A stretch of DNA of 64,000 nt from Chloroflexota bacterium (GTDB lineage Bacteria; Chloroflexota; Anaerolineae; UBA2200): positions 16,165 to 80,164 of the forward strand of contig JAUWJD010000011.1 of assembly GCA_030607875.1 (NCBI GenBank). The letters run 5' to 3'. The translations under genes and the position numbers were made by a program. The number at the start of each line of letters is the position of its first letter. Position 1 is the stretch's first letter. Below the pieces are notes generated by a model. That model was not told the DNA's origin and did not search any database. It was given only the letters and a program-made list of their open reading frames with translations. Of this stretch, positions 381 to 59,959 are shown piece after piece.

Positions 381-1790
381 TCAGGCACCACAATCACCGC
401 CAGTGTCTGGCTCCACAGATGCCAGAGGCTGGCCCATCGGGCATTCGTCCCGGTTCAGCGCCACTACCAGCCCGCAGGTAACAGCAAAGGTTGCGACAAA
501 GAACAGTGGAGCGAACTGGTATGCCAGATAGGTGATCAAAACGCTCGCGCTCAGAACCGAGGCGACTGCTTTGGTGATGCCGCGTGAACGTGCGAACAGT
601 CTCAGCGCCGAGACCAGGATCAGCAGGTGAAACAACAGATAGGGAATGCCTCCTACCAGACCGGTGGACACCAGGTGATCCCAGAAATGGTTGTGGATGC
701 TTGTCCGCAAGTAGAACACGTCCATGAACCGACCGCGCCCGATGCCCAGCAGGGGGGCCTGCTTGAACAGCCGCCATCCCGTCGCAAGGGCGTCAATACG
801 GATGGACACGTTTTCAACGCTCCTGGCCGAGCCGACGTCAACGATCCACCTGGGAGGTGCAAGGGCAAAGACCACATTGGCCACAACCAACGAGACAGCG
901 AACAGGAGCGCAACGAACCAGGAGCCCTGCGTGCTCGCCGAACGGGCAACCGGTCTGTCCTTGAGCAGCAGGAAGCAAAGGCTCAGTGCCACGGCCAGGC
1001 AGACCTCCAGGTATACACCTCGCTGTTGTGTAATCAGGGCACCCAGCGTGACGACAACGGCAAGCACTGCTCTCCACCCAGAGGATCGGAAAATCCGCTC
1101 GCGTCCCCAACTGGAGAGCACCAAGGTCGACAGAGCGAGGCCGAATCTGATTCCGAGTTTGTCGGGCGTTGTGTCGATTCCCAGAGTGCTCGGGAAGGGC
1201 ATTTGTATGGGGCCATACTGGCGCGCTGGGTATATTTCGGCTGCGAAGGGCAGATCGACGATGCGCGACGCCTGGACGATGGCCAATAGCCCGAGCACTG
1301 CGGTTCCGCAGGTGAGGCCCTTTAGGGTACTTGCCGCAGCTTTGACGTCCTCAGCAACGGCTACCGCGGCCAGAAAGACCACAAAGAAAGCGCCCCTGCC
1401 TGCTACCCAGGGCCAGTTGGACCAATTGTCATGGTAGAGCATCAGAAACACTTCCGCGCCCAGAGTGATCAAGTACAGCCAGAATATGGCTGCATTGGCC
1501 CGCCAGGCCGTCGTTATCCGCACCAGGCCTCCCTTGAGCAGGGCCAGGAGAAGAAAGCCCAGGCTGATGGGCACGATGGGAGGCAGGACAGTGAGCAGGC
1601 GGCCAAATCGCATCAACCGGAAAACGCTCAGCGCGACCAGAAACCCGAAGACAAAGCTGAGTTGCTCCCAGATCCTGTCCAGCATGGCAGACAGCCGGCG
1701 GGCGAACAGGGCCGCTTGCGCACGTAGCCTTGAGGGAACGGAGCCTTGGCGCACGCTTGTCTGGCGCGGCTGACCCAGTTGCGCCATCAT
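381..1790 (-). CDS. O-antigen ligase / Wzy polymerase family membrane protein
   Basis: Multiple TM helices, TQQRG motif, R...W..G..LF...PLLGIG.G and IHNHF..LVSTGLVG motifs; ATG at 1790 overlaps the MurJ stop (ATGA). Confidence 0.8.
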   Translation of the reverse strand: MMAQLGQPRQTSVRQGSVPSRLRAQAALFARRLSAMLDRIWEQLSFVFGFLVALSVFRLMRFGRLLTVLPPIVPISLGFLLLALLKGGLVRITTAWRANAAIFWLYLITLGAEVFLMLYHDNWSNWPWVAGRGAFFVVFLAAVAVAEDVKAAASTLKGLTCGTAVLGLLAIVQASRIVDLPFAAEIYPARQYGPIQMPFPSTLGIDTTPDKLGIRFGLALSTLVLSSWGRERIFRSSGWRAVLAVVVTLGALITQQRGVYLEVCLAVALSLCFLLLKDRPVARSASTQGSWFVALLFAVSLVVANVVFALAPPRWIVDVGSARSVENVSIRIDALATGWRLFKQAPLLGIGRGRFMDVFYLRTSIHNHFWDHLVSTGLVGGIPYLLFHLLILVSALRLFARSRGITKAVASVLSASVLITYLAYQFAPLFFVATFAVTCGLVVALNRDECPMGQPLASVEPDTGGDCGA

Positions 1791-48190: not shown

Positions 48191-48913
48191 CTACTCTACC
48201 AGCTCGAACTCGTCCTTGCTGACACCGCACACCGGACATTCCCAGTCGTCAGGGATGTCTTCGAAGGCGGTGCCGGGTTCGATGCCGCCATCCGGATCAC
48301 CGGCGGCGGGGTCGTATATGTACCCGCAGACGGTGCAGACCCACTTCTGCATGGCAGGAGCTTTTGCCTTGGGCTCCTCTTTCCGCAGCTCTCTCTTCCC
48401 GGCCTCTTCCGCGATGTAAGTGGGTGCAGTCTTCGGCGACTTGCCCCGCTTTACCTGGTGGTAGTACGCGTAGGTCATCGGCTTGGCATCGGGATTAAGA
48501 ATCTCGGCTGCGACTACGTCGCCGCTAAACAGGGTGTGTGTCCCAGGGCCCATGCTGGCCTTAATCTCAGCCTCCACGTAAGCCACGGCATGGTCCAGGA
48601 CGATGGGCGCACCGGTTACGCCGAATTTGTAATTGACACCCTCAAACTTGTTCATGTCCCGTCCGGACTTGAAGCCGAAACGCCCAATGAACTCCATGGG
48701 CGTGTCCTGCGATAGAACGGAGACAGCAAGAACATCGCTCGCCTGGACGAATTCATGGGTCAGATTCTGCTTGTTCAGGCAGACGGCAATCATAGGCGGC
48801 TCTGAGGTGGTTTGAAAGACAGTATTGGCAATCTGGCCGCTGAGTTTGTCTCCCTTCTTCGAAGTCACTACGTACAATCCGTAGCTGATCTTGTGCAAAG
48901 CTTTGCGGTTCAT
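48191..48913 (-). CDS. Flavin reductase-rubredoxin fusion (high-molecular-weight rubredoxin)
   Basis: [10 protein letters not shown]...GTHTLF; [12 protein letters not shown]...WECPVCG. Confidence 0.92.
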
Positions 48914-49041: not shown

Positions 49042-49989
49042 TCATGAGCTACAAAGAATCCGACGGAACCAGGCAACTGTTTGCTGCAAGCCGTCTTCCA
49101 GGTCAACGTTGGGCTCCCAACCCAGAATCTGGCGGGCACGCGAAATATCTGGCTGGCGCACTTTCGGATCGTCCACCGGCAGTGGTTTGTAGACAATTCC
49201 GGCGCGGTTCCCAACCAGGCGGTTGACGGTATGAGCAAAATCCAGGATGCTCATCTCCACCGGGTTGCCCAGGTTGAGCGGCAGCATATAGTCGGAGAAC
49301 AACAAGCGGAAGATGCCCTCGATCAGATCGGAATAGAAGCAGAAACTGCGCGTCTGGGAGCCATCGCCGTGCACCGTCAAGGGCTCGCCGCGCAGAGCCT
49401 GGCCGACGAAATTGGGCACCACGCGGCCGTCATCCAGCCGCATACGCGGACCATAGGTGTTGAAGATGCGCGCGATGCGTGTCTCCAGGCCATGGCAACG
49501 CTGATAAGCCATGGTTATGGCCTCGGCAAAGCGTTTGGCCTCATCATACACCCCGCGCGGGCCGATGGGATTAACATGACCCCAGTAGTCCTCAGGCTGT
49601 GGATGCACCTGGGGGTCGCCATAGACCTCCGACGTCGAGGCCAGGAGGAACCGCGCACCCTTAGCCCGGGCCAAGCCCAAAGCCTTGTGCGTGCCCATTG
49701 CACCGACCTTCAACGTCTGAATGGGGAACTCGAGGTAGTCAATCGGACTGGCTGGCGACGCAAAGTGCAGCACCGTGTCCACGGGCCCATCGATGTACAG
49801 GTACTCGGTCACATCCTGCCTGATGGAGCGAAAATGTTCGTGTCCGGCCAGGTGCTCGATGTTGCGGACGCTGCCGGTGATCAGATTGTCCATCGCGATG
49901 ACCTGATGGCCCTCGCTCAGAAAGTGATCGCAGAGATGAGAGCCGAGAAAGCCAGCGCCACCAGTGATCAGAACCCGCATTGCTGCCAT
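49042..49989 (-). CDS. UDP-glucuronate decarboxylase family SDR
   Basis: [45 protein letters not shown]. Confidence 0.93.
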
Positions 49990-49990
49990 C

Positions 49991-50731
49991 CTAGCACGGC
50001 CTCTTGCCAACGCTGCTGAAACGCACGCGGAAGAGGCCTTTGATGTCTTCCCAGGCTGTACTGGCAATCTTGACCCGGCTGTCTGGATCGTCCGCCCATT
50101 TGACCGGCACCTCAAAGATCTTGTAGCTCAAACGTTCTCCCAGCAACAGCAACTCGCTGTCAAAGAACCAGGCCTGGTCCTCAATCAGGGGCACAACCTC
50201 GCGCACCACCCGACGTGTGACTGCCTTAAAGCCACATTGTGCGTCAGAGAATCGGTTCCTGAACATCAGCTTAATCATCAGATTGTAGGTGCGAGAGATA
50301 AACTCGCGCTTCAGACCTCGCTGCACCTGTGCTCCCTCTTTCAGCCGGGACCCAATCGCTATGTTGTATTCGCTGTCGACCAGAGAATCAATCAGCGGTG
50401 GGAAGGCGCTGAGATCGGTGGACAAATCCACGTCCATGTAGCTGACGATGTCGGCGTCGCTCTCGGTCCAGGCCTTGCGCAGGGCGCGGCCCCGCCCCTT
50501 TAGGTCCAGGTGCACATAGGTCACCTGCCCAGGGTAACGCTCGGCCAATTCCTTGGCAATCTCCAGCGTCCGATCCCGCGAGGCATTGTCGGCAACCACA
50601 ATGCACCAATCATAGTCAACATTGTCCAACAAGAACTGCCGCAACTTGGCCACGCTCGGCTCGAGGTCATCCTGCTCATTGTAGACAGGAATCACCACGT
50701 CCACGCGCACTCGCCTTTTGTCTATCATCAT
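49991..50731 (-). CDS. GT2 glycosyltransferase (Dol-P-glucosyltransferase-like)
   Basis: [26 protein letters not shown]. Confidence 0.92.
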
Positions 50732-53448
50732 CGTGATCCTCTGCTTATGCTGGTCTCCTTCTCTTGCTGCTTATGGGAGTCTAACGGCCAGGCCCGTACC
50801 AGGCCCAAACTCAGGAAGAAGATAAACGCTAAATCCACCAGGAAGTAGGAATTGTCGATCAAACCATGTGCCAACATCGCGGTCGTGCTGGCAACCAGGC
50901 CCAGAATGATAGCACGCTCATTGCTATCTGGCAAATGCCGGTACAGGCGCAGGGCCAGGACGAAGAACGCCGCTACCAACCACAGCAGGACCATCACACC
51001 CCCGAGGCCGAGGCGCGTCCAGTAGTCCAGGATGATGTTGTGCGGATGAGAAAGATGCGGTTCTTGCCATGCTTCTGGCAGAATGTACTCTGGGTAGCGA
51101 TACAAGAAATTGTCCAGACCGATACCAGTCAGTGGATGATCGCGGATCATAGCCAATGCCGCTTGCCAGAGCTTTAGGCGGCGGTATGTCGTGCCCTGCT
51201 CAAGATCGAACAGGGAAAGGATACGCTGTGTCCCGAGCAGCGGCAGAAGCAGCACCATGCATAAAACAATCATCGTCACTGCCAGCAGAGTCGCACGCCG
51301 TCCGCGTGCCAACCCAATGGTCAGCAAGGCCGCAGGCAAGCTGAGCAACCAGCCCCCCCGCGAATAGGTCAGGAACAAGCAAAGCAGCAGTGCCAGCAGG
51401 ACCAGACCGTACAGGAAGCGTCGAGGCGGCCTCCCCATCCACAGGCCGGCCAGGGCCAGGGGAATGATGCGCCCCAGAAACAGGCTGAGATTGTTCGGCG
51501 AAGCATAAACTCCCCGCATCCGCCGCACACCTTCCGCCACGATCACGTCACTGCTGATGAAGTATTGGTACAGGCCAAAAACAGCAACGGCCAGTCCTGC
51601 CAGCAGAAGGGCATTGGCCAAACGCATGAGTTGCTGGTCATCCAGCCGCGCCTGGCGAAGGACAAAGTAGAGCAACACAGGCTCGATGATAATGACGCGG
51701 AACTCGCGGATGCTGACACCCCGGTTCACAGAAACCAGCAGCGAGAGCGCGGCGAGCAGTACAAAGGCAGCCACCGCCCAGTCCAGCGAAGTAAGGGAAC
51801 GCAGCCAAACACTCCACCAACGTCGCAGCTTCCCTGGAGCACTGCACAAACCAGAACGGAACACTCCCTGGCGCAGCCACAGCAGCCACGACGCCGCACA
51901 ACACAGCAGGGTCAAGGTCTCGACCATGGAGAACGACTTGCCGAAGAGGGCCTTGGGGTACAGAAAGAAGGGAATGGAGAACACCAAACAGGCCAGGCCG
52001 ATGTCCAGACGCAGGAAGATGAGCGCAGCGGCGCAGGCCAGTGCCAGCAGACTGGGCACCGCCCAGGGTAGGACGTAGTACGTCGCCAGCGAGCCGCCGA
52101 CCAACAGCCACTGCACCCACTCAGGCCAGCCCCGGTACAGCGCTACCAGGCGACGAGCCCACACTTCCCAGGGAACAGATGCGCCCAGGCGCGCCAACAC
52201 GACCCGCAGGCACAGCGCGACCACAACGATGAGCGCCAGTTGCCAATAGTACGAGGAGTGATCTGTCTGGACCTGGCTGACCGGCGTGGAAGCGACATCC
52301 TGCCAGGTCCAATAGAACGCGGTGGGCTCAGAATCCGCATCAAGCAATGCAAAACCCCAGTGCGGATCATCATTGGGCAACGCTGGCTGCCAATCAGCCC
52401 AACACAACACGCCCAGCCAGGACCACTCTTGGCGGATGCGTTGCACCGCCTTCACCGTGCGGTCCATCTGCTTGCTTATGTCATCTGTGCCCCACGGTGG
52501 TGCCTGTCCGTACCAGTCCTGAGGCAGCGAGTTCCAACCGAACTCGACCGCCCAGATGGGTATATCCCCATCGCCGTGCCGCACCATCTCCTCGCGCAGC
52601 AGAATGAGGCGTGAGAGATTCAGCACCTGCGGATCAACCCGCCGGTCTTCCGGGCCACTCCAGAAACCGTACGGCTTGGCCGCGAGCACGTCGAAAAGCC
52701 CGCGCCCCCCGGCCTGGTAGATGCCGCGCAGGAACAGTTCCTCACTCATGTTGCGCCCACCCGCCTCGGTGTTCGGAGCGAGGCCAGCGCTGAGCACGAT
52801 GGCATCGGCATCCGCTGCCCGCAGCTCGGCTGCGGCCACCTTCAGGAGACGCACATAGGCGGCAGGATCCACAGGGCGAGCGCCCCAATGAGGGTAGATA
52901 TTCGGCTGATCCCAGATCTCGTAGCAGGTGATCCGCCCACCGTAGCGCTGCGCAAAGGCCCGGACAAACAGGCCATAAGTGGTAACAAACTGCGGTGGAG
53001 CAAAACGGTTATCTCGATCCGCCGGGCTGCGCGCCCACACTGGAGCGGTGTCCAGCACCGCAACAAGCTCCAGTCCTTGCCGGCTGGCTTCTGCAACCAG
53101 GCGATCCCAAGGTTCCCAGTCATACGTTCCCGGCTGCGGCTCGATCTCTGCCCAGGGAAAATGCTGCCGCAGCCAACGGAACCCGCCTGCCCGCACCAGG
53201 CTCAGGGTATGGCGCAGTTCCTCGTCAGATGCATACTGTTCCAACGAAACATTAACCCCGTACAGGCCATCCATGGGCAACGATAACGCCGGCAGTTGTT
53301 CGTAGAGTACGCCTCGCTGCACGTACCGCTGCTGGCTGACAAGTCTGTAGCCCAAGAGGGCCAACACAAACAGGGAGAGGCAACACAAGAGGAAAGCAAT
53401 GGCGAACCAATATGGGTGCGCGGCTTTGTTCGGAAGGATACGACTCAT
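50728..53448 (-). CDS. Fusion of a clan GH-A glycoside hydrolase-like domain and an O-antigen ligase domain
   Basis: RQHFPWAEIEP..G.YDW, EIWDQPN, WAVEFGW; ASPNNL, TYSRGG, HPHNIILD, HGLID. Confidence 0.85.
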   Translation of the reverse strand: MSRILPNKAAHPYWFAIAFLLCCLSLFVLALLGYRLVSQQRYVQRGVLYEQLPALSLPMDGLYGVNVSLEQYASDEELRHTLSLVRAGGFRWLRQHFPWAEIEPQPGTYDWEPWDRLVAEASRQGLELVAVLDTAPVWARSPADRDNRFAPPQFVTTYGLFVRAFAQRYGGRITCYEIWDQPNIYPHWGARPVDPAAYVRLLKVAAAELRAADADAIVLSAGLAPNTEAGGRNMSEELFLRGIYQAGGRGLFDVLAAKPYGFWSGPEDRRVDPQVLNLSRLILLREEMVRHGDGDIPIWAVEFGWNSLPQDWYGQAPPWGTDDISKQMDRTVKAVQRIRQEWSWLGVLCWADWQPALPNDDPHWGFALLDADSEPTAFYWTWQDVASTPVSQVQTDHSSYYWQLALIVVVALCLRVVLARLGASVPWEVWARRLVALYRGWPEWVQWLLVGGSLATYYVLPWAVPSLLALACAAALIFLRLDIGLACLVFSIPFFLYPKALFGKSFSMVETLTLLCCAASWLLWLRQGVFRSGLCSAPGKLRRWWSVWLRSLTSLDWAVAAFVLLAALSLLVSVNRGVSIREFRVIIIEPVLLYFVLRQARLDDQQLMRLANALLLAGLAVAVFGLYQYFISSDVIVAEGVRRMRGVYASPNNLSLFLGRIIPLALAGLWMGRPPRRFLYGLVLLALLLCLFLTYSRGGWLLSLPAALLTIGLARGRRATLLAVTMIVLCMVLLLPLLGTQRILSLFDLEQGTTYRRLKLWQAALAMIRDHPLTGIGLDNFLYRYPEYILPEAWQEPHLSHPHNIILDYWTRLGLGGVMVLLWLVAAFFVLALRLYRHLPDSNERAIILGLVASTTAMLAHGLIDNSYFLVDLAFIFFLSLGLVRAWPLDSHKQQEKETSISRGSR

Positions 53449-53720
53449 CGATTGATCCTTAGAAACCCTCAACTATCGTACCACAGGTTCTGCCCACCGG
53501 CAAACGGACAACAGAGATGGTCACACAGCCCACATACAACTCAGTCCATGAGCAGTAAACCTGAGCTGTGGCCATTGCTGACGCGGTCTTGTGCCTACAT
53601 GAACAAGGGGCAGAGCGGGCGGGAAGGCACAGGTCCCTGAGTTGGCTTGGCTCAAGTATGAGCCGCCACCCGCCAGGGCAGGGCTGTCGCATTGGCTGTG
53701 CCCCCTGGGCTACTGCCGTC

Positions 53721-53976: not shown

Positions 53977-54657
53977 ATGGAAGAGATCCTATTGAACGCT
54001 GAACAGCGCCAAATTACCGGCAAGATGGTCAAGCAATTGCGGCACAAAGGATATGTGCCAGGCGTGCTGTACGGCCACTATACCGAGCCCATCAACTTGA
54101 GAATAGAGCAGCGCGCGTTGTACCAGGCAGTACAGGAAGCCGGGATGAACCGTCTAATCACCCTCAACATAAAGGGCATTCGCGACCCGAGACGCGTGCT
54201 GGTGCGCGAACTGCAGCGAGACGCGATCACCCATACCATGCTGCACGTTGACCTGTACGAAGTCATCATGACCGAAAGAATCACCACAGAAGTGTCCATC
54301 GTCTTGACGGGCGAGTCGCCTATGGTCCAGGACGGGGAAGGTCTTGTCTTCCAGGGGTTGGACAACATCGAAATCGAGTGCTTGCCTGGCGACCTGCCCC
54401 CACAAATCGAAGTTGATATCACGGGATTGGACGTCATCGACGCTACGATTCTGGTCAGCGACCTCAAACTGAGCGATGCGATCGAGATTCTAACGGACGC
54501 AGAAGAAATCGTGGTCAGGATTCTGCCGCCCGCGAGAGAGGAGATCGAGGAAGTAGTAGAGGTAGAAGAAGTGGCCGAAGTAGAGGTTGTGGGCGAGGAG
54601 GAGGAGGGACCCGAAGCGGAAGCCGAGGAAGAGGCCAAGTCAGGCAGAGAGCAGTAG
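53977..54657 (+). CDS. rplY: 50S ribosomal protein L25 / Ctc
   Basis: LRHKGYVPGVLYG, LHVDLY, PQIEVDITGL, acidic tail. Confidence 0.95.
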   Translation: MEEILLNAEQRQITGKMVKQLRHKGYVPGVLYGHYTEPINLRIEQRALYQAVQEAGMNRLITLNIKGIRDPRRVLVRELQRDAITHTMLHVDLYEVIMTERITTEVSIVLTGESPMVQDGEGLVFQGLDNIEIECLPGDLPPQIEVDITGLDVIDATILVSDLKLSDAIEILTDAEEIVVRILPPAREEIEEVVEVEEVAEVEVVGEEEEGPEAEAEEEAKSGREQ

Positions 54658-54708
54658 CGCAGGCTCTCGAAACACAAGCACATCAATCACAAACAGAGGA
54701 GAGATTCC

Positions 54709-55770
54709 GTGTTCAGCCCACTCAACGCCCTACTAGGGTTGTTTTCCCGGGATATGAGCATCGACCTGGGTACAGCTACCATCCTTGTGCTCGTCCAGGG
54801 CCAGGGCATAGTAATCCACGAGCCTTCTGTCGTCGCCATCGAGAAAAAGACCAAGAGGGTACTAGCTATCGGTGCTGAGGCCAAAGAGATGATCGGCCGC
54901 ACACCAGCAAACATTGTAGCCATACGCCCGCTCCGTGATGGCGTGATCTCGGACTTTGATGTCACGGAGAAGATGCTGCACTATTTCATCAACAAGGCAC
55001 ACGAACACACGCGCATGCCGCTGCCACGGCCACGCGTGGTGGTAGGAATTCCCAGTGGTGTGACCGAGGTGGAGAAGCGCGCCGTGAGGGACGCGTGTCT
55101 CAGTGCAGGCGCGCGTGAAGCGTATCTGATTGAAGAGCCCATGGCCGCGGCAATTGGGGCTGGCTTGCCCGTTACAGAGTCCGTGGGCAGCATGATCGTG
55201 GACATCGGCGGCGGCACAACAGAAGTGGCGGTCATTGCCCTGGGTGGCATCGTGGTCAGCCGCTCCATCCGAGTCGCTGGCGATGAAATGGATGAGGATA
55301 TTGCCCTGTACGCTAGGAAGAAGTACAACCTACTCATCGGAGAACGCATGGCCGAACGGGTCAAAATCGCCATCGGCTCGGCCTGCCCGTTGTCCGAAGA
55401 AAAGTCGATGACCATCTACGGACGCAACCTGATCACCGGCCTGCCCCAGGCGATAGAAGTGAGCAGCGTCGAAATACGCGAAGCTCTGGAGCGTTCTCTG
55501 AATACTATCGTCGCCACGGTCAGAGAAACCATCGACGAGACGCCACCGGAGCTGATAGCAGACCTTATGGAGCAGGGCATTTTCTTGGCAGGGGGCACTG
55601 CCCAACTCCAAGGCCTGACCGAACGTCTGACCCAAGAGACGAAAATGCGCGTGTACGTAGCAGACGATCCGGTTACCTGCGTCGTGCGTGGTGGGGGGCT
55701 CGTGCTGGAACAGCTCGATAGACTGGCCAAAGTACTGGCCTCGGCTCAGCGGGGGCGAAGCAGGCGCTAG
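54709..55770 (+). CDS. mreB: Rod shape-determining protein MreB
   Basis: IDLGTA, PLRDGVI, IEEPMAAAIGAG, DIGGGTTEVA. Confidence 0.98.
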   Translation: MFSPLNALLGLFSRDMSIDLGTATILVLVQGQGIVIHEPSVVAIEKKTKRVLAIGAEAKEMIGRTPANIVAIRPLRDGVISDFDVTEKMLHYFINKAHEHTRMPLPRPRVVVGIPSGVTEVEKRAVRDACLSAGAREAYLIEEPMAAAIGAGLPVTESVGSMIVDIGGGTTEVAVIALGGIVVSRSIRVAGDEMDEDIALYARKKYNLLIGERMAERVKIAIGSACPLSEEKSMTIYGRNLITGLPQAIEVSSVEIREALERSLNTIVATVRETIDETPPELIADLMEQGIFLAGGTAQLQGLTERLTQETKMRVYVADDPVTCVVRGGGLVLEQLDRLAKVLASAQRGRSRR

Positions 55771-55864
55771 CAGAAACTTCTCTGCACAGCCAACAGCGTG
55801 ACGGTCTCCAACCGTCAGCGGACACGGGCATCCATGGTTAGAGCCTGGCCCCAGAGGTAGCAAC

Positions 55865-56677
55865 TTGAGTGTATTGCGCAATCGCTCGGTAACACCGGCA
55901 GTGAGCTTGCTCGTGGGACTGCTTGCCATCACGCTCTTGCGCCCGACCGGCTACCTGCAGCCAGTGGAAGACCTCGTCGCCAGTGCCCTCGCACCGTTGC
56001 AATACAGTCTTGATTGGACCAGCACCAGGATCACTGGCTGGGCACAAACGCTCAAGCACCTGAACTCACTGCAAGCCCGGGTTCGCGAGCTAGAGGAGAC
56101 GGTGGATCGTCTGATGGTCGAGAACGTGCGGCTGCGCGAGGCAGAAATCGAGCTCGCAAACCTGCGGGAGCAACTGCAGTTCAAGATTGCCAATCCCAGC
56201 TACGAGTTGCTCGCTGCAGAGGTCATCGGCCGAGATCCCAGCAATCTGCTGCACTATATCATCATTGACCGCGGCACTCAGGACGGCATAGCAATAGGAA
56301 TGCCGGTTGTCACCGCACGCGGTTTGGTCGGCAGGATTACGACCGCTTATCCCCACTCCGCACGAGTGATGTTGCTCACCGACCTGGCAAGCTCAGTCAA
56401 TGCTCTCATCCAGAGTTCACGTGCTACTGGTGTGGTACAGGGACAAGGACAGCGGGGCTTGATGATGCGTTATGTCGAACAGAATGAACCGGTGCAGGTG
56501 GGCGACATCGTCCTCACATCGGGACTGGGGGGCAATTTCCCCAAGCGGCGGGTGATCGGTCAGGTCACAGCGGTCAAACGAAACGATATGGACATGTTTC
56601 AGGAGGTGCAGGTACAGTCCGCAGTCAGCTTCCATCGACTGGAAATGGTTCTGGTCATTCAGAGCTTTGCGCCTTAG
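55865..56677 (+). CDS. mreC: Rod shape-determining protein MreC
   Basis: Coiled coil; IIIDRGTQDGI, GLVGRI, TSGLGG.FP. Confidence 0.95.
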   Translation: MSVLRNRSVTPAVSLLVGLLAITLLRPTGYLQPVEDLVASALAPLQYSLDWTSTRITGWAQTLKHLNSLQARVRELEETVDRLMVENVRLREAEIELANLREQLQFKIANPSYELLAAEVIGRDPSNLLHYIIIDRGTQDGIAIGMPVVTARGLVGRITTAYPHSARVMLLTDLASSVNALIQSSRATGVVQGQGQRGLMMRYVEQNEPVQVGDIVLTSGLGGNFPKRRVIGQVTAVKRNDMDMFQEVQVQSAVSFHRLEMVLVIQSFAP

Positions 56678-56699
56678 ACTGCCGCTAGCACGGTAGTTA

Positions 56700-57278
56700 G
56701 TGACGAATGGAACGACTGCCGCGCCAGAGTCTGCGAGATGCCAGCAAAGTCGGCACTACAAGGAGCCTGAAAGGAGCGCCATCAATCCGTACCTGGCAGC
56801 AGGACTGCTCATCACAACAGCCCTGATACAAACCAGCGTCATGCCCAGGCTTTCTCTGTGGGGCGTGACCCCCGATTTGATGCTGTTGGTGGTTGTCTCG
56901 TGGAGCTTGCTTCGTGGCAACAGCCAGGGCTTTCCCCTGGCGCTCGCTAGCGGTTTGATACTGGACTTGCTTTCCGGCGGTCCTTTTGGCGCTGCCACCC
57001 TGTCCCTTACTCTGGCTAGCATGATCGCGAGTTGGAGCCAACACGGTATCGCCCGTGATTCAATCTGGCTGCCTCTGGCTGCCGCCAGCCTGGCTACAGT
57101 GCTGTACGACGGCATCTATCTCGTCATCCTACGAGCTTGTGGGCGACCAATCACCTGGGGACTGGGATTCTTGCAGGTAATCGTGCCAAGCATAGCATGG
57201 AATGCACTGGCGATGTATCCTGCGTATGGGTTGTTGCGCCGTTTGCACCTGCGCACCGTTTTCGGCCAGAGTGAGTGA
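56700..57278 (+). CDS. mreD: Rod shape-determining protein MreD
   Basis: PDLMLLVV, GLILDL; position in the operon. Confidence 0.9.
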   Translation: MTNGTTAAPESARCQQSRHYKEPERSAINPYLAAGLLITTALIQTSVMPRLSLWGVTPDLMLLVVVSWSLLRGNSQGFPLALASGLILDLLSGGPFGAATLSLTLASMIASWSQHGIARDSIWLPLAAASLATVLYDGIYLVILRACGRPITWGLGFLQVIVPSIAWNALAMYPAYGLLRRLHLRTVFGQSE

Positions 57279-57282
57279 CAAG

Positions 57283-59220
57283 ATGAAAAAGACCCACTCC
57301 AATCTGCGCGTTCTGGTGCTACAGATCCTCATTGTGGCCGCATTTTCGCTGCTGGTGGTCCGGCTCTGGCGACTGCAGGTCGTGCGCTCGGAAGACTACC
57401 GCGTACTGGCGGACGTCAACCGGTTCCGCCTGGTCTCCATCGACGCACCCAGAGGCGTGATCTACGACCGCAGTGGCCGTCTGCTGGTACGGAACGCTCC
57501 CAGCTACACCATCTCTATTGTGCCTGCCGCCTTGCCAGAAGATGGAGAGCTCAGGCACATCGTCCTCTCCCGACTGTCACAACTGCTGGAGATCCCTGTC
57601 AACAACAAGGTAGCCTCCACAGGAGGAGCAGATACCCAACCTGGCATCGAAGAGATATTGGAAGCGAATACACTTTCCCCACACGCTCCAGTTCCAATCA
57701 AAGAAGACGTGGACAAACACGTAGCTTTTCTGATCGAAGAAGAGCATCTTTATCTGCCAGGGGCAGTGGTGGAGGTCACACCAAGGCGCCAATACCCAAC
57801 CGGGGCGGTCACGTCACATTGGCTTGGCTACGTTGGGCGCATCCCTGCGGAACAAGTGCACTACTACCTGGACCAGGCCGACGAGGACTATACCATCAAC
57901 GACCGTGTTGGCCTGATGGGCGTTGAAACCACGTACGAAAGGGAACTGCGGGGTCGCAAAGGCATGAAGCATATCGAGGTGGACGCGTTCGAACGCGAGG
58001 TAAATGTACTGGCCATTGATCCACCCCAACCGGGCAATAGCCTGGTGCTGACCCTGGACCTGGAGTTGCAGCAGGCTGCAGAATCAGCGCTGAGAGAGGG
58101 CATGCACCATGTCGATTGCACGGCCGGCGTTGTGATCGCCATGAACCCGATGAGCGGGGAAATCCTGGCCATGGTCTCCCTGCCCAGCTATGACAACAAC
58201 CTCTTTGCCGGTGGCATCTCGCCCCAGGATTATGGCCAACTGAGCAACAACCCGGAGCGCCCTTTGGTAAACCATGCCGTCAGCGGCCAGTATCCACCGG
58301 GGTCAACTTTCAAGATTGTGGCTGCAGCGGCCGGGCTGGAGGAAGAGGTGATCAACCTTGGGACTCGCCGCACGTGCAAGGGGGAATTGCTGTTGCCCAA
58401 CAAGTATTTTCCTGATGACCCCGCGCAAGCTCAGGTATTCAAATGCTGGTACGAGTGGGGACACGGGTCACTGAGCATCATCGATGCCCTTGCTCTATCG
58501 TGCGATATCTATTTCTACCAAGTCGGCGGTGGCTTTGAGGATTTCGTCGGGCTGGGCATCGAGAGACTGGGTGCGTATGCCCAATCCTTCGGTTTCGGTG
58601 AGCCAACTGGCATTGCACTACCGGGCGAAAGCGCGGGTCTCGTACCCGACGACAAGTGGAAGCGCGTGAACTATGGCCAGTCCTGGGTGACCGGCGACAC
58701 GTACAACGCAGTGATCGGCCAGGGGTTCGTTCTGGTCACACCCTTGCAGTTGTTGAATGCCACTGCTGTGGTTGCCAATGGCGGCACATTGTATCGGCCA
58801 CAGGTGCTCTACCAGATCGTTGACTCTGAGGGTTACATCATACAGGACTTGGCGCCCGAGGTCATCCACGACATCCCAGTCTCTGCGCATAACCTGGAAA
58901 TCGTGCGCCAGGGGATGCGCGCAACAGTAACTAATGGTACGGCACACCGTATCAACCTGAAAGAAGTCGCGGTCGCTGGCAAGACTGGCACAGCCGAATA
59001 CCCAGGCCCCCGGGACGAAGAGGGGAACCTGCCTGCGCACGCCTGGTTCATAGCCTTTGCTCCGTACGAGCAACCGGAGATTGCGCTGATGGTGTTTGTG
59101 TCCGGGGGACACAACGGAGCCGCGGTCGCCGTGCCTATTGCAGCAAAGATCATGCGAGCCTATTTCGAACTGCCGCAGCCTGTTGGAGAGGACATTGTAG
59201 CACCACCGCCTGGAGACTAG
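57283..59220 (+). CDS. mrdA: Penicillin-binding protein 2
   Basis: APRGVIYDR, STFK (SxxK), SCD, KTG. Confidence 0.96.
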   Translation: MKKTHSNLRVLVLQILIVAAFSLLVVRLWRLQVVRSEDYRVLADVNRFRLVSIDAPRGVIYDRSGRLLVRNAPSYTISIVPAALPEDGELRHIVLSRLSQLLEIPVNNKVASTGGADTQPGIEEILEANTLSPHAPVPIKEDVDKHVAFLIEEEHLYLPGAVVEVTPRRQYPTGAVTSHWLGYVGRIPAEQVHYYLDQADEDYTINDRVGLMGVETTYERELRGRKGMKHIEVDAFEREVNVLAIDPPQPGNSLVLTLDLELQQAAESALREGMHHVDCTAGVVIAMNPMSGEILAMVSLPSYDNNLFAGGISPQDYGQLSNNPERPLVNHAVSGQYPPGSTFKIVAAAAGLEEEVINLGTRRTCKGELLLPNKYFPDDPAQAQVFKCWYEWGHGSLSIIDALALSCDIYFYQVGGGFEDFVGLGIERLGAYAQSFGFGEPTGIALPGESAGLVPDDKWKRVNYGQSWVTGDTYNAVIGQGFVLVTPLQLLNATAVVANGGTLYRPQVLYQIVDSEGYIIQDLAPEVIHDIPVSAHNLEIVRQGMRATVTNGTAHRINLKEVAVAGKTGTAEYPGPRDEEGNLPAHAWFIAFAPYEQPEIALMVFVSGGHNGAAVAVPIAAKIMRAYFELPQPVGEDIVAPPPGD

Positions 59221-59224
59221 GCCT

Positions 59225-59959
59225 ATGACCCAAAGACCCATCATGCCGTTTTCTCGTCGTGGCCAGCCCAACAGCCGCAAAGCTGAGGTGGCCAGGATCA
59301 GAATCAAGGGGACGCGCAAAGGGCTGTCCATCGCCCTGGGTAAAGGGGATTGGCACCAATTGTTGAGGAAATTGGATGCCCGCCTGACGCAGGCAGAAGC
59401 CTTTTTCCGGGGCAGCCAGGTCAGCCTGGACACAGGCAGGCGGGACCTCAGCCAGCCAGAACTGGAAGAGCTCATCCATGTCCTGGCAAGTCACGACATT
59501 GAACTGGCCACACTGCAGACTGTCTCCCGGCTGGCCTCGGAGGCAGCACAGGCACTTGAGGTGAGGCTGGGACTGCCTGAACCGATACCCACTCATCCAG
59601 ATACTCCAGTGCCAATGGAAGAATGGAGTGAGGGACTGTTGCTGCGCCGCACGCTGCGCTCGGGACAATCGCTCAAGCAGCCGGGACACGTGGTGATCAT
59701 CGGCGATGTGAACCCCGGCGCCCAAGTCATAGCCGGTGGCGATGTCATAGTCTGGGGTAGATTGCGCGGGATGGTGCACGCAGGAGCGCTGGGCAATGAC
59801 GAAGCCATCGTGTGTGCCCTGGAGCTGCGGCCCATCCAGTTGCGCATCGGGAGCCACATTGCAACATCCCCCGACGAGAAGGAAAGCGCGAGCACGGGGC
59901 CAGAGGTGGCTTCCGTGCTGGACGGTCATATCGTGGCCAGACCGTGGACCAGCAAATAG
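59225..59959 (+). CDS. minC: Septum site-determining protein MinC
   Basis: RTLRSGQ...GDVNPGAQVIAGGDVIVWGRLRGMVHAG. Confidence 0.95.
   Translation: MTQRPIMPFSRRGQPNSRKAEVARIRIKGTRKGLSIALGKGDWHQLLRKLDARLTQAEAFFRGSQVSLDTGRRDLSQPELEELIHVLASHDIELATLQTVSRLASEAAQALEVRLGLPEPIPTHPDTPVPMEEWSEGLLLRRTLRSGQSLKQPGHVVIIGDVNPGAQVIAGGDVIVWGRLRGMVHAGALGNDEAIVCALELRPIQLRIGSHIATSPDEKESASTGPEVASVLDGHIVARPWTSK

Follow-up and report, generated by a model that had tools for sequence, protein, structure and literature searches.

Many polysaccharide pathways, among them those for Psl, Pel, cellulose and alginate, carry a glycanase of their own. In the Psl pathway of Pseudomonas aeruginosa, the glycanase is PslG (GH39; structures 5bx9, 4zn2 and 9g17), a separate, membrane-tethered endo-beta-glucanase in which N164-E165 and E276 are all needed for activity; E165 and E276 have been experimentally defined as the acid/base and the nucleophile (PMC6813494; PMC11912335), and Asn164 hydrogen-bonds the -1 sugar (PMC11912335). 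A second group of relevant proteins, the WaaL ligases (GT121), is represented by the Cupriavidus metallidurans enzyme (CmWaaL; 7tpg), in which R191 and R265 bind undecaprenyl diphosphate (Und-PP) and H313 activates the acceptor, whereas the inverting BP-Pol polymerases of clan GT-C1 have Asp or Glu at the acceptor-activating position (PMC10920833). A ligase fused to a second carbohydrate-active module working on the same glycan has a precedent in WadA of Brucella/Mesorhizobium (GT121 plus GT25), which is the sole fusion mentioned in the CAZy GT121 paper (PMC10920833). This study examined a window of 64,000 nucleotides from an uncultured Chloroflexota bacterium of the class Anaerolineae (contig JAUWJD010000011.1, positions 16,165 to 80,164), in which a single minus-strand gene encodes a PslG-like barrel followed by a WaaL-like ligase module. 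The component parts (a GH39 PslG-like barrel, a GT121-like ligase, and a bimodular ligase as in WadA) are known individually, and a literature search for a glycosidase-ligase fusion found no paper describing one.

The open reading frame (ORF) of the fusion occupies 50728-53472 and is 914 amino acids long when opened from an in-frame TTG; the shorter form starting from the downstream ATG is the version called in the protein collection (Table 1). More than 480 homologs of the fusion protein were found, and the ORF is therefore a real gene and no chance frame. From the N- to the C-terminus, the protein consists of a transmembrane helix, the PslG-like barrel, a second transmembrane helix and the WaaL-like Wzy_C module, and the full-length structural model has a predicted local distance difference test score (pLDDT) of 90.6 and a predicted template modelling score (pTM) of 0.69. 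The short tail preceding the first helix contains two Lys/Arg and zero acidic residues. The barrel would form a 370-residue loop between two transmembrane helices, facing outward on the same side as the catalytic loop of the ligase, and the fusion protein is probably a two-module envelope enzyme.

The clan GH-A fold that an earlier note on this DNA had proposed for the barrel, from the letters alone, was recovered by both sequence and structural similarity and could be narrowed to a PslG-like member of GH39. With the family profile, the best solved relative was PslG (5bx9, E 1.4e-23; approximately 21% identity), and the AlphaFold model of residues 50-430 (pLDDT 93) likewise had PslG as its best Foldseek match (E 8e-20, TM-score 0.70), with other GH39 enzymes ranking behind it; Pfam reports a short Glyco_hydro_42 match within the fusion protein. 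The barrel shares with PslG its N-terminal membrane anchor, the association with a lipid-linked polysaccharide pathway, and the W-x-x-P-N and E-x-G-W motifs in the same places. At the end of strand 4, the W-D-Q-P-N motif falls exactly on W-N164-E165-P-N of PslG in the profile alignment, with Asp (GAT, 52909-52911) replacing the Asn of the clan and Gln (CAG, 52906-52908; Q189, equivalent to PslG E165) replacing the acid/base Glu, so that the canonical Asn-Glu pair reads Asp-Gln in the window protein. The Gln had been pointed out in the earlier note; the invariant Asn-to-Asp change one residue before it had been missed. At the end of strand 7, W-A-V-E-F-G-W aligns on IWSTE276WGW of PslG, and the Glu that had been proposed as the nucleophile, E310, is indeed retained at the position of E276; the score in that stretch is weak, yet the motif lies at the strand end in the model.

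The state of these positions was followed in a first set of 120 fused homologs from metagenomes, which was enlarged with genome-derived sequences to 165; the tree of the 165 was built without the catalytic columns and rooted on canonical paralogs. Across the 165 fused homologs, the W, D, P and N of W-D-x-P-N are invariant. The acid/base column between them is highly variable, with E 61, Q 54, N 4 and G 1 in the metagenome set and E 93, Q 63, N 6, G 1, S 1 and R 1 in the enlarged set, requiring at least 22 changes on the rooted tree. The nucleophile column holds E 106, A 10, S 2 and T 2 in the 120 metagenome homologs and E 140, A 15 and others in the 165, where Glu is lost in 25 proteins and at least 12 changes are required. 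Only three proteins are without either Glu, and 162 keep at least one. At the acid/base site, E/Q flips occur even between relatives that are more than 70% identical; the clade of the window protein is dominated by Gln, with occasional reversions to Glu. Gln is also present in all three other genomes of the window protein's family, encoded by either CAA or CAG, and these synonymous codons indicate that the Gln state is old and maintained.

Free-standing PslG-like paralogs in the same genome, which carry the canonical W-N-E-P-N, provided a control for the variability seen in the fusion. The 120 homologs of the 583-residue paralog (56-100% identity), a set about as divergent as the fused family, all keep Asn and both catalytic Glu. 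Therefore, the lability of the catalytic residues and the universal Asn-to-Asp change are specific to the fused family. The ortholog alignment that the earlier note had called for thus gave a divided answer: Gln recurs in the same-family genomes and in 63 of 165 homologs, but the site has switched back and forth between E, Q and N. The substitution itself is real, but it marks no special adaptation of the window protein; the nucleophile has also been lost repeatedly. Judging from the alignments, Gln at the acid/base position is neither a private mutation nor a hallmark of the family, and the signal of interest is a family-wide relaxed constraint on both catalytic Glu residues combined with the invariant Asn-to-Asp change one residue before the acid/base site. 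Separately, the free-standing paralog family is widespread in the class and directly adjoins the fusion gene in some genomes (e.g., G195 and G173).

The relaxed constraint does not extend to the remainder of the barrel. In the barrel, 75 of 352 columns are at least 95% conserved; the Wzy_C core has 49 such columns out of 340. Mean pairwise identity in the barrel and in the ligase part is 0.60 and 0.60 for Gln-Gln pairs and 0.57 and 0.54 for Glu-Glu pairs, respectively, and lineages with Gln showed no quicker decay of their barrel. By these measures of conservation, the barrel shows no decay and is conserved as well as the ligase module. The best-conserved positions flank the old active site and comprise W187, D188, P190, N191, W196, the Y268/W271 region, G312, W313 and the strand-2 Arg102. 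Two further patterns were considered and rejected. Mutual exclusivity of the two Glu losses (three of 165 without both, against approximately 11 expected) is not significant, because the losses reduce to approximately eight independent nucleophile-loss events, six on Glu189 and two on Gln189. Compensation by a Glu four residues upstream on the same strand of the barrel, at position 185, was rejected because E/Q at 185 is uncoupled from E/Q at 189, with Gln at both positions in 38 of 120 homologs. Position 185 of the TTG-start numbering (52918-52920 in the window; Y-E/Q-I/V-W, with Glu in the window protein) itself toggles between E and Q at least 16 times across the fused family, and all 120 homologs of the free-standing paralog have Gln there.

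The C-terminal half of the protein has a sole membrane-protein match, the WaaL ligase 7tpg (phmmer 4e-5; Foldseek E 1.4e-8 and TM-score 0.67, chain 7tpg_B). Combined, the Pfam score of the Wzy_C core and the WaaL-like fold place this module in Wzy_C/GT121, and the description of the ligase as intact-looking held up, since the alignment finds equivalents of the WaaL Arg/Arg/His set in the fusion protein (Table 1). R757, H801 and H803 are invariant in the family, and R697 is at least 90% conserved. The acceptor-activating position holds the invariant His and not the Asp or Glu of the polymerases, which is suggestive of a ligase-type module rather than a polymerase. An additional NCBIfam match, to the family named IctB bicarbonate transporter, reached 86.8 bits where the cut-off is 366 and was set aside as a resemblance among Wzy_C proteins that stays below threshold. 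The fusion departs from WaaL in having two extra transmembrane helices and the 370-residue barrel at its N-terminus. It also differs from WadA, in which the partner of the ligase is an active cytoplasmic-type glycosyltransferase completing the acceptor, whereas the partner here is a degenerate hydrolase fold predicted to face outward.

The acceptor was addressed through LpxC (PF03331), which was found in none of 21 related genomes including the window's own (84% complete), by a search that was positive in four diderm controls. Therefore, the acceptor is not expected to be lipid A-core, which is a further difference from WaaL, and a role as a lipopolysaccharide (LPS) O-antigen ligase that transfers O-antigen onto lipid A-core was rejected. 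This result agrees with published views of the Chloroflexota as lacking LPS and having outer layers of unknown composition (10.1101/2025.08.19.671072). Despite LpxC not being found, the window's own genome of 3.4 Mb has approximately 11 Wzy_C genes, a large WaaL/Wzy-like expansion. Among these are a gene of 602 amino acids at the start of the window (match approximately 639-1064, minus strand) and one of 1174 amino acids on another contig.

The favoured explanation, which is given a probability of about 0.6, is that the barrel does not hydrolyse a glycan but binds it or positions it next to a WaaL-type transferase. The WaaL-type (Wzy_C, GT121-like) module would transfer a glycan linked to undecaprenyl diphosphate onto an acceptor on the outer face of the membrane, and the PslG-derived barrel, tethered beside it between two transmembrane helices, would hold the acceptor chain or the growing polysaccharide or product beside the ligase site. 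After the fusion arose, the role of the barrel would have been freed from the Glu/Glu hydrolytic pair, and position 189 would require just a polar, medium-sized side chain, with Gln as one tolerated hydrogen-bonding option among E, Q and N. The invariant Asp in place of the clan Asn may contact, and re-specify, the -1 sugar site. In these filamentous bacteria, the glycan itself is probably a xylose-containing component of the non-LPS outer layers. The glycan clamp proposed in the earlier note would fit this combination of labile catalytic Glu and conserved surroundings. The substitution also has parallels among other glycosidase folds. Inactive glycosidase folds serve as lectins, for instance YKL-40 and other chitinase-like proteins of GH18, whereas myrosinase (GH1) works with Gln at the acid/base position, being catalytic only thanks to the excellent leaving group of its substrate. 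In both of these, a catalytic Glu has been replaced and the sugar-binding cleft has been kept; they differ from the fusion in belonging to other clans or families, in being soluble, and in not being fused to a transferase.

Several observations weigh against a non-hydrolytic glycan-positioning module. The window protein itself retains the nucleophile Glu, and the acid/base Glu is kept in 56% of the 165 homologs, so some members may hydrolyse. Outward topology derives from a crude hydropathy scan and from analogy with WaaL and PslG, the pTM of 0.69 leaves the mutual orientation of the barrel and the ligase module uncertain, and the synteny counts given below come from related genomes and are hence non-independent. 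Asp188 and Glu236, both invariant, or a carboxylate of the substrate are candidate alternative proton donors, and with one of these the barrel could still act as a hydrolase; it could otherwise act as a transglycosylase, with the nucleophile attacking a donor that has a good leaving group (an Und-PP-glycan) and makes a general acid unnecessary. That the barrel remains an enzyme with such altered chemistry is doubtful, although it would account for at least one Glu being kept in nearly all members, for the highly conserved surroundings of the active site, and for an Asp188 that is both invariant and specific to the fused family; a Gln at the acid/base position is, as in myrosinase, compatible with catalysis. 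Normal Psl production additionally needs the hydrolytic activity of membrane-tethered PslG (PMC6813494), and catalysis by modules of this kind can therefore matter in biosynthesis. This chemistry is difficult to reconcile with the three members that lack both Glu and retain all other invariants, and E/Q flips above 70% identity are hard to square with a catalytic side chain. Nucleophile losses on both Glu189 and Gln189 backgrounds, without clear mutual exclusivity, speak against it as well. In PslG, the contact made by Asn164 is with the -1 sugar rather than with the oxygen of the leaving group (PMC11912335), so its Asp equivalent would be poorly placed as a general acid. Quite unlikely is a single-carboxylate, re-tooled glycosidase, in which the one-Glu members, whether they retain just the nucleophile as the window protein does or just the acid/base, would act as natural analogues of engineered glycoligases and glycosynthases, with the invariant Asp re-specifying the -1 site; such an enzyme might splice a xylose-containing polymer into an existing wall layer without hydrolysis, using lipid-diphosphate-activated glycan supplied at the fused ligase and in step with MreB-PBP2.

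It is very unlikely that the barrel is a mere structural spacer or a protein-protein docking domain (e.g., for the wall-synthesis machinery) with no carbohydrate ligand. The dispensable catalytic residues, and a gene that often lies beside mreB-mreC-PBP2, could be explained in this way, but a pure spacer would not keep its best-conserved positions around the old active site, and the common residues at position 189 (E, Q and N) are all polar and of similar size. Finally, the change from GAG to CAG involves a single base, and the earlier note had allowed for Gln being a private mutation or an error; this explanation, as well as incipient pseudogenization, is refuted by the presence of Gln under two codons in same-family genomes and in more than a third of the homologs, and by an ORF that is intact and strongly conserved. 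The covalent link to the transferase, the Asn that is always Asp, and the lability of both Glu positions are what set the fusion apart from PslG, and the fusion of a glycanase fold to a transferase of lipid-linked glycans is evidence, of a genetic kind, for both working on one chain at one site. Evolution has repeatedly lost the cutting residues while keeping the cleft, and the natural E, Q and A variants make chain-holding that is independent of hydrolysis directly testable.

Table 1. Positions of the fusion gene, its modules and motifs, and the related genes, numbered in the window unless another contig is named.
Feature	Position	Strand	Remarks
Whole fusion gene	50731..53448	-	906 amino acids from ATG at 53448; stop 50728-50730; in-frame upstream TTG at 53472
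N-terminal transmembrane helix	53350..53406	-	Residues 15-33 (ATG numbering) by hydropathy scan; helix 12-44 in full-length model
PslG-like (GH39, clan GH-A) (beta/alpha)8 barrel	52213..53295	-	Profile search, Foldseek and model
W-D-Q-P-N, end of strand 4	52900..52914	-	TGG GAT CAG CCG AAT
W-A-V-E-F-G-W, end of strand 7	52534..52554	-	Glu at nucleophile position, GAG at 52543-52545
Second transmembrane helix	52183..52239	-	Predicted to lead the polypeptide back to the cytoplasmic side before the WaaL-like helices begin; hydropathy scan and full-length model
Wzy_C (PF04932) core	50986..51402	-	Residues 691-829; Pfam 86.1 bits against cut-off of 31.7
Arg in S-R-G	51358-51360	-	Aligns with CmWaaL R191
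Arg in R-L-K-L-W	51178-51180	-	Aligns with CmWaaL R265
His in H-P-H-N	51040-51042	-	Aligns with CmWaaL H313
GT2 gene	49991..50731	-	246 amino acids; closest to polyprenyl-phosphate sugar transferases (ArnC, AglJ, dolichyl-phosphate hexose transferase)
UDP-glucuronate decarboxylase (UDP-xylose synthase) gene	49042..49989	-	Human UXS1 (2b69/4gll), E 1e-116
Free-standing PslG-like paralog, 583 amino acids	L002:1057-2808		Other contig of the same genome; W-N-E-P-N; C-terminal CE2_N-like domain

A search for the fused form was positive in 146 of 151 class genomes and, among other classes of the phylum, in 78 of 201; the latter tally includes the unpublished genome G185, which enters into no other result. 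The fusion is thus near-universal in the Anaerolineae. The two neighbours named in the earlier note, a GT2 and a UDP-xylose-forming enzyme, were both identified as such downstream of the fusion gene. The ATG of the GT2 gene overlaps the TGA of the fusion as ATGA (50728-50731), and the likely ATG of the UDP-xylose synthase gene (approximately 49989) lies 2 nt past the GT2 stop, so these genes are tightly coupled. The listed ORF of the UDP-xylose synthase reaches upstream to 50115 solely by way of an in-frame TTG.

Conservation of this arrangement was assessed at 40 loci from 40 different genomes of the class. The GT2 gene is present only in the three nearest relatives, whereas the UDP-xylose synthase gene is found downstream on the same strand in approximately 22 of the 40 loci and lies within 1.2 kb in 19 of the 38 loci that have enough downstream sequence. 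This linked gene offers a concrete lead on the contents of the outer layer. Further downstream, between the UDP-xylose synthase gene and glmS, a minus-strand gene at 48191-48913 encodes a protein of 240 amino acids with a flavin reductase domain and a C-terminal rubredoxin, which has no obvious tie to glycan synthesis.

An mreB-mreC-PBP2 cluster lies within 12 kb of the fusion in 14 of the 40 loci. In the window, a divergent cluster encoding L25, MreB, MreC, PBP2 and MinC occupies 53977-59959 on the plus strand, approximately 500 nt upstream of the fusion gene, and no gene resembling RodA was identified beside that for PBP2. The L25-MreB-MreC-PBP2-MinC arrangement recurs in approximately one-third of the sampled genomes of the class.

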